From the NCBI GenBank assembly GCA_020632795.1, contig JACKEV010000023.1, positions 5,775-69,774 on the forward strand: 64,000 bases of DNA, given 5' to 3'. Within the stretch, counting starts at the first letter, position 1; the number at the start of each line of letters is the position of its first letter. Under the pieces are notes generated by a model that ran no database searches, was not told the origin of the DNA, and saw only the letters and a list, made by a program, of their open reading frames with translations. Source of the stretch: Alphaproteobacteria bacterium (lineage in GTDB: Bacteria > Myxococcota_A > UBA796 > CAJQPC01). The translations under genes were made by a program, and so were the position numbers. Shown one piece after another: positions 10,260-15,701 of the stretch.

Positions 10260-11597
10260 TCACCGCCCGATCGACCCGTCCTTCGCCACCTTCACCCCGG
10301 TCTCCGGGAAGTCCTCCGCCGAGAGCTGCCGGATGAGGTCGATGGCCTGGCCCTCGGGGTCCGGCGCGGGCACGCCCTCGCCCTCCTGGAGGGTGGGCAG
10401 GATGCGGCCCCCGGCGAAGCGGCCCCGGGCGTCCAGGGTCACGTCCAGGATGAGCCCCACGCCCAGGTAGCCGGACAGGTTGAACCGGCCGTAGGTCGCG
10501 AAGTTGCCCAGGGAGTAGGCGATGAGGCGGTCCTTGTACAGCTCCATCGCCCGGGGGACGTGGGGGCCGTGGCCGATGACCAGGTCCGCGCCCGCGTCGA
10601 CCACCGCGTGGGTGAAGACCCTCAAGTCCCCTCGGTTCTCGCCGTAGAAGCGCTCCCCGCCGTGGGGGACGTGCAGGGCCTTGGCGCCCTCGGCCCCGCC
10701 GTGGAAGGAGACGATGACGAGGTCGTGGTCCGCGTCCACGGCCTGCACCAGGGCCACGGCGGTCTCGGTGTCGTTGAGGTTGTGGCAGCTGTCGGAGGTG
10801 TGGAAGCCGATGAGGCCGATCTTGAGGCCGTTGTGCTCCACGGTGGCGATGGTGCCCGGCCGGCCGCTGTAGTGGATGCCCAGGGCGTCGAGGGTGGCCT
10901 CGGTCTCCATCCGGCAGGTGTCGCCGAAGTCGCTGGCGTGGTTGTTGGCGGTGGAGGCCAGGTCCACCCCGACGTCGGCGAGGTATCGGCCGTAGCGGGT
11001 GGGGGAGCGGAAGGCGTAGCAGTTCTCGCCCTCGCCGCACTTGTCGGTGAACCCGCCGTCGCAGAGGGGGCCCTCCAGGTTCACGAAGGTGAGGTCAGCG
11101 TCCCGGAGCAGGGGCCCGACCGCGTCGAGCAGGCCCGCGCCGTCGTTCGGGGGCAGGTTGCCGGCGGGGAAGTCGGTGCCGAGCATGACGTCGCCCGCCG
11201 CGCGCAGGCGCACGGTGGCGCCCTCGGGGGGCGGGGTGCGCACGGTGTCGGGGGCGCCCTGGGCCGCGGCGGCGACCATGCGCTGGACCTCCAGGTTGCC
11301 CCGGGCGGTGCCGATGTGCCGGTCGACCTGGGGGTGGTCGGGCTCCAGGGCCTTGACCTTGTCCCAGGCCTGGACCACCCCGGCCCAGTCGGACTTGAGC
11401 CAGCGGGCCCAGCCCAGCTCCCACCAGCAGTCGGCGCGCGCGGGGTCGGCGGCGGTGCATGCCTCCAGAGCTGCGATGGCGGCGTCGGCGTCCTTCTGCT
11501 GAAGCGCGGCGACGCCAGCGGCGTAGTGCGCCTCGGCGGACTCCTGGGCGAGGGCGGGCGGTGCGAGCAGCAGGGCGAGGGGCAGGGCGCGCATCAC
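10260..11597 (-). CDS. CapA/PGA_cap family metallophosphatase with N-terminal TPR-like region
   Basis: 445-aa ORF with a signal peptide. CapA-type motifs are RLRAAGDVMLGTD, DLTFVNLEGPL, ASTANNHASDFG, VSFHGG and HGPHVPR. Confidence 0.8.
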   Translation of the reverse strand: MMRALPLALLLAPPALAQESAEAHYAAGVAALQQKDADAAIAALEACTAADPARADCWWELGWARWLKSDWAGVVQAWDKVKALEPDHPQVDRHIGTARGNLEVQRMVAAAAQGAPDTVRTPPPEGATVRLRAAGDVMLGTDFPAGNLPPNDGAGLLDAVGPLLRDADLTFVNLEGPLCDGGFTDKCGEGENCYAFRSPTRYGRYLADVGVDLASTANNHASDFGDTCRMETEATLDALGIHYSGRPGTIATVEHNGLKIGLIGFHTSDSCHNLNDTETAVALVQAVDADHDLVIVSFHGGAEGAKALHVPHGGERFYGENRGDLRVFTHAVVDAGADLVIGHGPHVPRAMELYKDRLIAYSLGNFATYGRFNLSGYLGVGLILDVTLDARGRFAGGRILPTLQEGEGVPAPDPEGQAIDLIRQLSAEDFPETGVKVAKDGSIGR

Positions 11598-11689: not shown

Positions 11690-11845
11690 GTGCTCCAGCC
11701 AGGGATGGGCCTCATCGTGGCGGCGTGCGCCGGGCTGGCGCTGGGCTGCGGCCAGCGCCACACCAGGCCCGACGACGACACCACCCTGACCCCCCGGGGC
11801 CACGGCTGCGTCGAGGTCACCGAGCAGACCGGCGAACGGGGCTGA
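11690..11845 (+). CDS. small putative lipoprotein (51 aa)
   Basis: GTG 11690 lies 5 nt after AGGAGGAGG, with an in-frame ATG at 11705. Sequence ...MGLIVAACAGLALGCGQRH... is a signal plus lipobox-like LGC. Its last 40 nt are duplicated at 13069..13108. Short, so uncertain. Confidence 0.4.
   Translation: MLQPGMGLIVAACAGLALGCGQRHTRPDDDTTLTPRGHGCVEVTEQTGERG
11806..11845 (+). repeat. left copy of a 40-bp imperfect direct repeat flanking the AT-richer insert
   Basis: ctgcgtcgaggtcaccgagcagaccggcgaacggggctga versus 13069..13108 ctgcgtcgaggtcaccgagctggccggcgaacggggctga. That is 38/40 identical by eye. Confidence 0.85.
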
Positions 11846-11861
11846 GCCTGTTCTGAGACCG

Positions 11862-12668
11862 TCAGACGGAGATTTGTTGAATTTGCCGAACGCCCGGACT
11901 TGGGGGGGAAGGAGGCCGGTCGACCCGGTGGCCACAGTTCGGACACCAGAGGGGGTCCTTCAGGACCTTCTCTTCTGGAATGTCGGCTGAGAAGTGTGAC
12001 TCGCAGCTCGGGCAGTGATCCCGGATGGAATGCACGACCGACTTCTCCACCTCGGCAGAGTACCGAACGACCTGATCCCGACCCTTGCGCTTCGCGTAGT
12101 TGACCGCTTCCTCGAGCAAGATGCGAATTCGACGAGCTGTCGGCGTGTCAGGGGCATCGTCCCCGACCGCCCACCCGATGCTGACCGTGCAACGCATCGT
12201 CTCCCGCATACCCGAGACCCGGATCTCGACCCGCTTGATGGACTCCCTGAAGTGCTCCAGGCTTCCATGGATGTCGGCGAAAATGGTCTCGGGCTCATCC
12301 TCCTCGATGTCACCCAAGAAGAAGAACTCATCTCCGTGGGCACGGAACGCCACGACGAGCCGGCCGGCAAAGTAGTCCCGCGCGGCGATCTCCATGTGGG
12401 TCGCGACCTTCTGCAGTAGCTTGTCGGCGTTCTGATAACCAAAGGCGTCGTTCAACCTCTTGAACCGATCAATCTCGACGAAACCTACCCAGAACCGGCG
12501 GCTCTGCTGGACATACCGCTCGACCGCTTCGGCGAGGCGTTCACTGAGCGCGAGGTCGTTCGGAAGACCTGTGAGCTGATCTCGAAGCTGCTCAATGCGG
12601 ACAGCTTCTTTCATCAGGTGCTGGACCGTCTCCAGCGCCTCTTGAATCTTCTCACCAGATGCTTTCAT
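11862..12668 (-). CDS. divergent GGDEF-family nucleotide cyclase (HGDEF) with N-terminal coiled coil and C-terminal zinc ribbon
   Basis: 268-aa ORF. GGDEF-domain landmarks are DQLTGLPN, IDRFKRLNDAFGYQNADKLL, RAHGDEFFFL (12324..12338), SIGWAV and NYAKRKGRDQVV. The C-terminus has HCPSC...x21...WCPNCGH (about 11865..12017). No RxxD I-site is seen upstream of the active-site motif. Confidence 0.75.
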   Translation of the reverse strand: MKASGEKIQEALETVQHLMKEAVRIEQLRDQLTGLPNDLALSERLAEAVERYVQQSRRFWVGFVEIDRFKRLNDAFGYQNADKLLQKVATHMEIAARDYFAGRLVVAFRAHGDEFFFLGDIEEDEPETIFADIHGSLEHFRESIKRVEIRVSGMRETMRCTVSIGWAVGDDAPDTPTARRIRILLEEAVNYAKRKGRDQVVRYSAEVEKSVVHSIRDHCPSCESHFSADIPEEKVLKDPLWCPNCGHRVDRPPSPPSPGVRQIQQISV

Positions 12669-13045
12669 GCGATACTTAAAGGTCGTGTAGCCCCTGAAAG
12701 CAGTCTTTGCACCAGATCTTCGAGCGTCTTGTCGGCGTAGGGCTTGGTATCAGGGTCGAAGTCGGCTCGGAAGTTCTGGAGCCCCTTGGCCGGGTTGTCG
12801 ATGGTGACGAACCACACCGGGGTCTTCGCACCCAGCCTCCCCAGTTCGGCGGACACCAACTCCAAGCCTTGCTCACGCAGGCGCAGCTTGAGCTGTCTGT
12901 GGAAGCGATCCCGTTGCTCCTTTGCGGTGACCACGGACGCTCCAAGGACACCCAAACCCAGCAGGCCCGCCGCGATCAAGAGGCTGTTTGTGTCGTCGTT
13001 CGCTGCCATCTTCTTCAGGATAGGCGACCCCCCCAACGCTGACAA
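12665..13045 (-). CDS. small single-pass membrane protein
   Basis: 126-aa ORF with an alternative ATG at 13009. One hydrophobic helix (LLIAAGLLGLGVLGASVV) is followed by a soluble tail of about 85 aa. Its stop overlaps the start of the GGDEF-like gene by 4 nt. Confidence 0.55.
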   Translation of the reverse strand: MSALGGSPILKKMAANDDTNSLLIAAGLLGLGVLGASVVTAKEQRDRFHRQLKLRLREQGLELVSAELGRLGAKTPVWFVTIDNPAKGLQNFRADFDPDTKPYADKTLEDLVQRLLSGATRPLSIA

Positions 13046-13068
13046 GCCACGCTGTGCCGATTCTGCTC

Positions 13069-13108
13069 CTGCGTCGAGGTCACCGAGCTGGCCGGCGAAC
13101 GGGGCTGA
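13069..13108 (+). repeat. right copy of the 40-bp imperfect direct repeat
   Basis: See 11806..11845. It reads in frame as CVEVTELAGERG-stop, a duplicate of the 3' end of the small lipoprotein ORF. Confidence 0.85.
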
Positions 13109-13193
13109 TCTCCAGCCCTTGACCGGTTAAGAGAGTCGGTCTCCCCGGGCTGCAGACCGCGCGGCCCGCTGATCCCCTCGGAGCCCTGCGCCC

Positions 13194-15701
13194 ATGTCCG
13201 ACCCGACCATCGCCGCGAGCCTGATCCCGATCAACATCGAAGACGAGATGCGGACGTCCTACCTGGACTATTCCATGTCCGTCATCATCGGCCGCGCCCT
13301 GCCAGACGTGCGCGACGGCCTCAAGCCGGTCCACCGCCGCATCCTCTACGCGATGTACGACGAGGGCCTGCTCGCCAGCCGCAAGTACAGCAAGTGCGCG
13401 GGCGTGGTCGGCGAGGTGCTCAAGAAGTACCACCCCCACGGCGACAGCGCGGTCTACGACGCCCTGGTCCGCATGGCCCAGCCCTGGAACATGCGGTACC
13501 CGCTGGTCGACGGCCAGGGCAACTTCGGCTCCCCCGACGGCGACTCCGCAGCGGCCTACCGCTACACCGAGTCCCGCATGATGAAGCTCGCGCAGGAGCT
13601 GCTCGCGGACATCGAGAAGGAGACCGTCAACTTCACCCCCAACTTCGACGGCGTACACCTTGAGCCCGAGGTGCTGCCCGCCCGCTTCCCCAACCTGCTG
13701 GTCAACGGCTCCGAGGGCATCGCGGTGGGCATGGCCACCAAGATCCCACCCCACAACCTCGCCGAGGTCATCAACGCCACCGTCGCCCTGATCGACGACC
13801 CCGAGCTGACCAGCGAGCAGCTCATGGCCGAGCACGTCCCGGGGCCCGACTTCCCCACCGGGGCGCTCATCTACGGCCGCGCCGGCATCCACGACGCCTA
13901 CACCACCGGCCGGGGCCGGGTCATCATCCGCGCCCGCACCCACTTCGAGGACATCAGCGCCGAGCGCCAGGCCATCATCATCGACGAGCTGCCCTTCCAG
14001 GTGGGCGCCAACCGCATCATGGAGCAGATCGCCGGCCTGGTGCGGGACAAGCGCATCGAGGGCATCGCCGCGATCCGCGACGAGTCCGACCGCACCGGCC
14101 GCCGGGTGGTCATCGAGCTCAAGCGCGACGCCTACGGCGAGGTCGTGCTCAACAAGCTGTTCAAGCACACCGACCTCCAGGCCACCTTCGGCGTGATCCT
14201 GCTGGCCATCGTCAACGGCCAGCCCCAGGTGCTGACCCTGCGCGAGATGCTCGCCCAGTACATCTCCCACCGCCGCGACGTCATCACCCGGCGCTGCCGC
14301 TACGAGCTGCGCAAGGCCCGCGAGCGCGCGCACCTGGTGGAGGGCTTCCTCAAGGCCCTCGACCTCATCGACGAGATCATCGCCCTCATCCGCGCCTCCC
14401 GCACCACCGACGAGGCCCGCGAGGGCCTGATCTCCCGGTTCGAGTTCTCCGAGATCCAGGCCCGCGCCATCCTGGAGATGCAGCTCCGCCGCCTCACCGG
14501 CCTGGAGCGCGAGAAGCTGGAGGAGGAGTACGCCGAGCTGCTCGCCACCATCGAGCGCCTGGAGGCCATCCTGGCCTCGGACGCGCTCCTGATGCAGGTG
14601 GTCAAGGACGAGCTGATCGAGGTGCGCGACGCCTTCACCGACCCCCGGCGCACCGAGATCGTCGACGCGGTGGGCGAGCTGAACATCCTCGACCTCATCG
14701 CCGAGGAGGAGCAGGTCGTGACCATGTCGGTCAACGGCTACATCAAGCGCTCCTCCCTCGACCTCTACCAGGAGCAGCGCCGCGGCGGCATGGGCCGCAA
14801 GGGCATGCGCACCCGCGACGAGGACTCGGTGCGCGAGATCTTCATCGCGAACACCCACAGCTTCCTGCTGGTCTTCACCACCCAGGGCCTGGTCTACCGC
14901 CTGCCCGTCTACGCCATCCCCGAGGCCGGCCGCGACGCCAAGGGCAAGCCCATCGTCAACCTCGTCCAGCTCGAGCCCGACGAGGAGGTCGCCGCCGTCC
15001 TGAGCATCCGCGAGTTCGGCGAGGAGGACGACCTGCTGTTCTGCTCCCGGCGGGGCCTGGTCAAGCGCACCCCCCTGTCCGACTACAAGAACCTCCGCAA
15101 CGTGGGCCTGCGCGCCTACGACTGCGCCGAGGACGACTCCCTGTTCACCGTGGTGCTGCGCGGCGACGAAGAGGAGGTCATGATCGCCACCCGCGACGGC
15201 ATGTCCATCCGCTTCCCCGTCGAGGAGGTGCGCCACATGGGCCGCGTCGCCCGGGGCGTGAAGGGCATCCAGCTCCAGGACGACGATGAGATCGTCTCGA
15301 CGGAGGTCATCGCCAACGACCCCTCCCTCGAGGTGCTCGCGGTCACCGAGAACGGCTACGGCAAGCGCACCGCGCTGGACGAGTACCGGGTCCAGGGTCG
15401 GGGCGGCCAGGGCATCATCAACATCAAGACCGACGAGCGCAACGGCCACGTCGCCGGCACCCTGCAGGTCCACGACGACGACAAGGTCATGCTGATCACC
15501 GACACCGGCCGGGTCATCAAGATCGCGGTGGCCGAGATCCGCTCCCAGGGCCGGAACACCATGGGCGTCACCCTGATGCGCGTCGGCGACGACGAGCGCA
15601 TCGTCTCGGTCACCCGGGTGGTCGAGGAGGACGAGGACGACGAGGACGACGAGGTCGTCGGGCATGACGACGCCTTCGAGGACGGCGACGGCGAGGAGTA
15701 G
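13194..15701 (+). CDS. gyrA: DNA gyrase subunit A
   Basis: 835-aa ORF. Canonical GyrA motifs are [54 protein letters not shown] and the active-site AAYRYTE. C-terminal beta-pinwheel repeats and an acidic tail are present. Confidence 0.97.

Follow-up and report, generated by a model that had tools for sequence, protein, structure and literature searches.

Phage 21 and e14 of Escherichia coli are prophages that insert in a protein-coding gene, icd, and bring with them a replacement for its 3′ end. Mobile insertion cassettes and miniature inverted-repeat transposable elements (MITEs) are non-autonomous units that have terminal inverted repeats and are mobilised by the transposases of insertion sequences. 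The tycheposons of Prochlorococcus reportedly include satellites that consist of cargo only, and are said to use a few tRNA-gene targets and a defined recombinase family. Here we analyse a short insertion that resembles each of these in part and none of them as a whole: a two-gene segment enclosed by 40-bp direct repeats, which lies between a CapA-like gene and gyrA in a 64,000-nucleotide stretch of contig JACKEV010000023.1 (assembly GCA_020632795.1, GTDB lineage Myxococcota_A). This stretch is referred to as the window, and positions are counted from its first letter. Two further published systems bear on the locus. Cis-mobilizable elements (CIMEs) keep their attachment (att) sites but have no recombinase, and in streptococci they occur in tandem accretion with ICEs (integrative and conjugative elements) and IMEs (integrative and mobilizable elements) (PMC5704250). 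The two genes of Panoptes form an operon in which the mCpol cyclase OptS is joined by OptE, a membrane effector of the S-2TM-beta type (PMC12657218).

We propose, at a probability of roughly 0.55, that the segment at 11846–13068 is a self-contained cassette without a recombinase, that it was acquired horizontally and inserted just after the stop codon of a small open reading frame (ORF), and that the 40-bp repeat is the scar of this insertion. That the repeat is real, and that DNA was inserted into the CapA–gyrA region, is solid. The cassette would comprise a promoter, a leaderless gene for a membrane protein (the partner) and a translationally coupled gene for a cyclase with a GGDEF domain and a zinc ribbon. 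One copy of the repeat would complete the small ORF, and the other would be a displaced and decaying copy beyond the cassette.

The 40-bp repeat and the DNA between its copies

The two copies of the repeat are identical at 38 of 40 positions, and both mismatches are central (CAGAC versus CTGGC). An initial annotation, made from the sequence alone, had described this pair and had recognised the left copy as the last 12 codons and stop of the ORF at 11690–11845; direct comparison confirms both points. The right copy keeps the reading frame and the stop codon of the small ORF, but a stop codon in the same frame 27 bp upstream places it outside any long ORF. Two matches of this kind appeared in none of 100 dinucleotide-preserving shuffles of the window. 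Across the whole 10.36-Mb assembly the 40-mer, with up to four mismatches allowed, occurs at these two sites only, and the exact central 36-mer has no match in a collection of species-representative genomes or in a metagenome collection. It follows that the repeat is no motif scattered through the genome, which settles the concern that it might be a common one. The scans of both collections with the 36-mer also returned neither a donor nor an empty site.

The small ORF has a host-like GC content at third codon positions (GC3) of 0.94 and a good ribosome-binding site, and is a putative gene. In 154 genomes of the order we found no credible homologue of it, only marginal matches of the signal-peptide-like kind.

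The 1,223 bp between the repeats differ from their surroundings in composition. Their GC content is 0.60, against 0.719 for the genome, and in sliding windows the insert runs at 0.57–0.63 and the flanks at 0.67–0.78. GC3 is 0.74 in the cyclase gene and 0.73 in the partner gene, as compared with 0.98 in the CapA-like gene and 0.99 in gyrA. Both measures agree with the lower GC already noted for the insert in the initial annotation, and they support the view that the segment, which is compositionally foreign, was acquired horizontally. The opposite view would be that the repeat is a local duplication or a chance similarity and that the gene pair is an old resident of the intergenic region. Such a view could draw on the missing empty site and on the lineage-specific character of both the small ORF and the 1.6-kb intergenic region. 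However, chance fails on the shuffles, a value of 0.74 is incompatible with long residence where the GC3 of the genome is 0.98, and the repeat brackets exactly the foreign DNA in a pattern that recurs at homologous cassettes. We consider the old-resident explanation very improbable.

As had been annotated, the segment holds just two overlapping genes; they lie on the minus strand and share 4 bp (ATGA). The absence of an integrase, a transposase and a tRNA gene was borne out, and the non-coding DNA inside the repeats amounts to 16 bp and 59 bp, without gene or pseudogene remnants. Inverted repeats between the two insert ends reach no more than a chance-level best score, here and at eight other repeat-bounded inserts. 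The lack of terminal inverted repeats at these nine inserts rules out an element of the MITE or mobile-insertion-cassette kind. Only one sigma-70-like site is present between 11600 and 13300, and it is the cassette promoter (mean in shuffled sequence, 0.1). Because this promoter ends 7 nt before the ATG at 13009, the cassette mRNA is predicted to be leaderless or nearly so. No terminator-like hairpin follows the cyclase gene. Since the CapA-like gene lies downstream on the same strand, transcription of the cassette may run on antisense through the small ORF and towards that gene (11846–11597, minus strand).

Several genomes of the same family, from other genera, have CapA and gyrA side by side in divergent orientation. 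The two genes are 57 bp apart in genome G008 and about 290–370 bp apart in G005, G017 and G021, and none of these four has the cassette or a recognisable small ORF in the interval. The whole 1.6-kb CapA–gyrA intergenic region of the window, small ORF included, is lineage-specific. No empty site was found among the genomes compared, none of which is of the same genus; the same-family genomes that are without the cassette are likewise without the small ORF. A motif conserved upstream of gyrA in four same-family genomes is present in the window at 13118–13142, and because of its position we conclude that native DNA resumes right after the right repeat. Across the same-family genomes this motif has the form GGTTAGGA...CCGGG. 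It is of a CCGG-TTAGGAAG-CCGG type in the window and at L007, L008, L009 and L012, stands 40–75 bp before the start codon and is conserved across genera; possibly it is a stem-loop or a promoter element.

Table 1. Features of the CapA–gyrA region in the window
Feature	Position	Strand	Remarks
CapA-like gene (TPR + PGA_cap)	10260..11597	-	Pfam PF09587, E 6e-42; left flank, same strand as cassette
Small putative lipoprotein ORF, 51 aa	11690..11845	+	GTG start 5 nt after AGGAGG
Left repeat copy	11806..11845	+	Last 12 codons and TGA of small ORF; ends exactly at TGA
Spacer, 16 bp	11846..11861		Left repeat to cyclase stop codon; without terminator-like hairpin
Cyclase gene, 268 aa	11862..12668	-	Long N-terminal helix, GGDEF domain with HGDEF, C-terminal CxxC...CxxC zinc ribbon
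Partner gene, 114 aa	12665..13009	-	One N-terminal transmembrane helix and small three-strand-and-helix domain
Cassette promoter, TTGTCA-17 nt-TATCCT	13017..13045	-	Sigma-70-like; ends 7 nt before ATG 13009
Inner insert end, 23 bp	13046..13068		Promoter to right repeat; no inverted repeat with other insert end
Right repeat copy	13069..13108	+	Displaced, untranslated copy of small-ORF end
gyrA-upstream motif, CCGGTTA[A/G]GA...CGG	13118..13142	+	Upstream of gyrA in four same-family genomes
gyrA	13194..15701	+	Right flank; 81–86% DNA identity to closest same-family genomes

The gene pair and similar footprints elsewhere

Homologues of the cyclase number in the hundreds. They are 250–270 residues long, share at most 52% identity, and come nearly all from Myxococcota metagenomes; among 400 other genomes sampled across the phylum, three contain the family. 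By tblastn, the partner gene lies directly upstream of the cyclase gene in 10 of 11 homologous loci, and a partner-like ORF precedes it in most of 25 loci examined, usually overlapping it or separated from it by a few bases. In most of these loci the partner start follows a TAnnnT box by 5–9 nt, and a TTGnnn box stands 17 nt further upstream. This conserved layout of promoter and start codon makes the cassette independent of its insertion context. The neighbourhoods themselves are unrelated from locus to locus. Among them, L014 has an excisionase and an integrase nearby, L017 a type I restriction subunit, Fic and an AAA_15 ATPase, L015 and L192–L194 Ser/Thr kinases, and L193 a DDE transposase. 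Flanks were compared at 22 distinct cassette loci, the window included. Whatever the host, the GC content of the cassette is 0.54–0.69, and it is below that of the flanks in 17 of the 22. The gene pair appears to be a conserved mobile unit without a recombinase of its own.

Within a few kilobases of the cassette, three genes recur on two unrelated contigs (L192:7456–10249 and L193:1221–3965): those for an HTH_31/HTH_3 regulator, a Ser/Thr kinase and a TPR protein. This triad may be another small mobile module.

Apart from the window, four loci are tightly bracketed by direct repeats. The repeat measures 168 bp at L032 (95% identity, E 4e-64), 38 bp at L106 (95% identity, E 2e-12, running to the contig end), 131 bp at L060 (68% identity, E 2e-14) and 37 bp at L014 (76% identity, with a marginal E of 0.003). 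The repeats of the five loci are mutually unrelated in sequence and lie 7–430 bp from the cyclase stop codon and 59–265 bp from the partner start. For comparison, 2 of 3,000 random 1,150-bp windows of the source genome show a comparable flanking repeat, counted as one of at least 30 bp and at least 90% identity within 400 bp. By this same measure a repeat flanks 3 of the 22 cassette loci, or 2 of 21 when the window is set aside.

The window, L032 and L014 have a common geometry: the repeat consists of the 3′ end of a gene that converges on the cyclase gene, it ends 0–3 nt from the stop codon of that gene, and the displaced copy is found beyond the partner promoter. L106 is an exception, with its left copy upstream of a divergent gene and its right copy truncated by the end of the contig. 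The displaced copy at L032 carries a frameshift and is thus decaying. Relatives compared with L032 in search of an empty site share with it only the upstream surE-like gene. At L032:4475–4488 the palindrome TAGCTAGCTAGCTA abuts the inner end of the displaced 168-bp copy; it places stop codons in all frames of both strands between the cassette and the gene fragment.

In the same-family genome G009 the cassette lies next to a CapA homologue, and two tandem tyrosine integrases are found 1 kb away on its opposite side. These integrase genes (contig C166, L024:5855–8420; 455 and 368 residues) share a 95-nt repeat at 74% identity and, together with a possible excisionase-like ORF, stand at the 3′ end of a gene for a 305-residue lipoprotein. 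The L024 region looks like an integration hotspot with accretion.

Such neighbours bring up the possibility that the insert of the window is a CIME formed by decay, in which case a full integrative element would have entered at the ORF end and deletions would have left the gene pair and both att sites. Homologous cassettes do adjoin an excisionase and an integrase at L014 and two tandem integrases in G009, and the result would match the definition of a CIME (PMC5704250). However, the integrases of L014 and G009 are outside the repeat-bounded or cassette segment, the 16 bp and 59 bp of non-coding DNA in the window hold no pseudogene remnants, and no element with this 40-mer turned up in the genome or the collections. 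Furthermore, the same two genes are tightly bracketed again, by different repeats and in independent lineages, so that the same precise decay would have had to happen several times. We regard origin by decay as unlikely. The initial annotation had left a choice between a decayed or minimal island and mobilisation in trans; a decayed island is disfavoured by the lack of remnants, and movement in trans is the better option, as the insert has no integrase, transposase or tRNA gene. In other genomes the repeats that enclose this gene pair differ from locus to locus.

A genome-wide scan for isolated repeat pairs of 30–250 bp, 0.5–7 kb apart, gave 62, about 10 of which bracket GC-poor DNA. The insert at L190:2065–4773 (G000 contig C5, 360564–363272) is 2.6 kb long and GC-poor, encodes a 445-residue protein of unknown type and a PP-binding (carrier-protein-like) protein, and contains no recombinase. 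Its 51-bp repeat (50 of 51 positions identical) duplicates the end of a gene for a PEP-utilising enzyme; the insert enters 5 codons ahead of the native stop and itself provides a TGA at once. At L188:2055–3335 (G000 contig C49, 839854–841134) a single DUF1016/YhcG gene for a PDDEXK nuclease is enclosed by perfect repeats of 37 bp, which begin 3 bp beyond the stop codon of a DUF2306 gene, and at the right end two further degenerate copies of the repeat core follow in tandem (contig positions 840938 and 841053). The insert at L186:2036–2829 (G000 contig C48, 620335–621148) has a GC content of 0.60 against 0.73; its near-perfect repeats of 64–84 bp, 730 bp apart, start at the stop codon of an ORF of 176 codons. 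We rejected the pairs at L189 and L191 as insertion scars, as they are paralogous or tandem genes, and the repeat at L187 is ambiguous because it joins two TPR paralogues. At least three more GC-poor, recombinase-free inserts with near-perfect repeats of 36–84 bp are present at other gene ends of the genome.

Possible route of insertion

For the insertion of a cassette without its own recombinase, the most likely route would be a single crossover by which a circular cassette, with a copy of the ORF end on it, joined the chromosome. The crossover could be of the att type, made by a tyrosine recombinase encoded elsewhere, or it could be a Campbell-type event mediated by RecA; recombination between the repeat copies could later excise the cassette again as a circle. 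Potential actors in trans exist, as the source genome has 11 tyrosine-recombinase genes (PF00589), none of them on this contig. In three loci the stop codon marks the end of the repeat, and the ORF is left whole; from these two points we suggest that the cassette brought a replacement gene end. The proposal of the initial annotation, site-specific insertion, is upheld in one half only. Insertion is backed by the foreign composition and by the CapA–gyrA pairs of same-family genomes that have no cassette. Site-specificity is not, as the repeats are unrelated across loci and no other element carries the 40-mer; for want of a shared core and of such an element, a dedicated site-specific recombinase with a fixed target is unsupported.

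The chief alternative to a single crossover is a long target-site duplication of variable length. A trans-acting enzyme or a repair pathway would have introduced staggered breaks 40–170 bp apart near a gene end, the cassette would have been ligated into the gap, and fill-in would have doubled the DNA between the breaks. Insertion sequences of the IS1634/IS1549 group make variable duplications of up to hundreds of base pairs, which counts for this alternative. The cassette repeats indeed vary in length (37, 38, 40, 131 and 168 bp) and are unrelated in sequence, and other GC-poor inserts of the genome that lack a recombinase have near-perfect repeats of 36–84 bp within about 60 bp of a stop codon. 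However, the boundaries of nine inserts show no terminal inverted repeats or conserved ends, and no transposase is associated with the cassette. Furthermore, a repeat end no more than 3 nt from the stop codon at three loci fits a gene end carried in by the cassette, although repeat ends so close to stop codons could also reflect selection against gene disruption. We rate a target-site duplication as rather improbable.

Several points weigh against our proposal of a horizontally acquired cassette with a scar of insertion. The main weakness is that it leaves unexplained how the end of an orphan ORF, one without homologues, came to be on the cassette. The lack of a core sequence common to the repeats speaks against one dedicated site-specific recombinase. 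About 17 of the 22 cassette loci have no flanking repeat, and the repeats at L060 come from the middle of two paralogue-like ORFs, which lie on the cassette strand, and are no gene end. The cyclase family was not found on plasmids, phages or viral contigs, IMG/VR included, so no transfer vehicle is known. Finally, the case for insertion is built from composition and from comparison across genera, and no empty site was found in the same-family genomes.

When duplicated gene ends enclose a unit that lacks an integrase, the unit is as a rule dismissed as the remains of an island. In the present case one compact pair of genes shows the footprint repeatedly, at different targets in several Myxococcota, and the pattern points to a general and poorly understood route by which these large genomes gain small packages of genes.

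The cargo and its comparison with known systems

The cyclase matches the Pfam GGDEF model PF00990 (E 2e-21, 76.7 bits, cut-off 23.8) and TIGR00254 (71.4 bits, cut-off 37.4), and its AlphaFold (AF2) model is confident, with a predicted local distance difference test (pLDDT) score of 92.5. In an alignment of 30 homologues D67, K70, N73, G112, D113, E114, F115 and K193 are invariant, as are three of the four zinc-ribbon cysteines (C219, C222 and C245), and H111 and R197 are conserved in at least 90%. By analogy with PleD, the conserved residues other than the cysteines presumably serve in metal, base and phosphate binding. As far as can be judged from the sequence, the predicted protein keeps the residues expected of a working GGDEF enzyme, with the exception of the first glycine (HGDEF). 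The RxxD inhibitory site is absent from the cyclase.

The partner most likely starts at ATG 13009. A start at TTG 13045, as given by the ORF finder, is improbable: homologues begin at the Met equivalent to ATG 13009 (MAxxDD...). A word-based protein search with the partner returned only the query, and the family was assembled from the loci instead; an Arg and a Trp are invariant in it. In the AF2 model (pLDDT 81) a long helix leads into three strands and a further helix, and a fold search with this model against the PDB and the ESM Atlas gave no informative match. Partner and cyclase are predicted to be co-translated, and the promoter that drives them looks constitutive.

The cargo is most likely a constitutively expressed, membrane-associated pair for the synthesis of a cyclic dinucleotide. 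PADLOC defence models gave no system match, only one weak match to the zinc ribbon, and neither PADLOC nor Pfam detected mCpol or S-2TM-beta in the cargo. The predicted role of the pair may be defence, or the manipulation of the host's cyclic di-GMP signalling by mobile DNA. In either role, an HGDEF cyclase with a zinc ribbon next to a small membrane protein is a conserved and uncharacterised pairing, and a tractable candidate for a nucleotide-signalling module on mobile DNA.

A bolder reading, which we hold to be doubtful, would place the locus in a class of cassettes that lack a recombinase, enter at gene ends and leave these in duplicate, with a new cyclic-dinucleotide defence pair as cargo that is analogous but unrelated to Panoptes. 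The mechanism of their spread, so far undescribed, could consist of the capture of a short copy of the target gene's end followed by a host-mediated single crossover, or of insertions staggered by 40–170 bp near stop codons through an unknown trans-acting enzyme. If this were true, ready-made packages of promoter and genes would be spreading through the Myxococcota.

The likeness to Panoptes concerns the cargo only. Both pair a small palm-domain nucleotide cyclase with a membrane protein and are found in defence or mobile contexts; Panoptes is expressed constitutively, and the same is predicted of the cassette. In contrast to Panoptes, the cyclase described here is no mCpol protein: its domain is a genuine GGDEF by Pfam, its residues are of the guanine type, and it carries a zinc ribbon. 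The gene order is reversed. The partner, with one transmembrane helix and a three-strand-and-helix domain, is also unlike the S-2TM-beta fold of OptE.

As regards the insertion itself, the cassette resembles CIMEs in that genes for integration or transfer are missing from it and it relies on functions provided in trans (PMC5704250). CIMEs are, however, decay products of known ICEs or IMEs and share their att sites with an integrase-bearing element, whereas the cassette has neither remnants nor a partner element, and the bare two-gene unit recurs with unrelated repeats at unrelated sites. Like the satellites of tycheposons, it is a small unit of cargo without a recombinase that is flanked by partial copies of its target, at hotspots also used by integrase-bearing elements; it differs from tycheposons in that diverse protein-gene ends are the targets and no recombinase family is linked to it. 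With mobile insertion cassettes and MITEs it shares a non-autonomous build, passenger genes and flanking direct repeats, but it has no terminal inverted repeats, and its duplications are far longer and more variable than is typical of them.

When set beside site-specific integrative elements in general, the locus has repeats that bound the inserted DNA, with no integrase inside and no common att core. The footprint resembles that of phage 21 and e14, where the target's last codons are likewise present twice, so that the gene remains whole, and the displaced copy is found at the opposite end of the inserted DNA. Those prophages are tens of kilobases long and have their own integrase, whereas the insert here is 1.2 kb long and has none. 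The footprint is that of classical gene-end integration with a replacement end, and it differs in that a bare cassette appears to be the recurrent unit, with varied repeats at varied targets.

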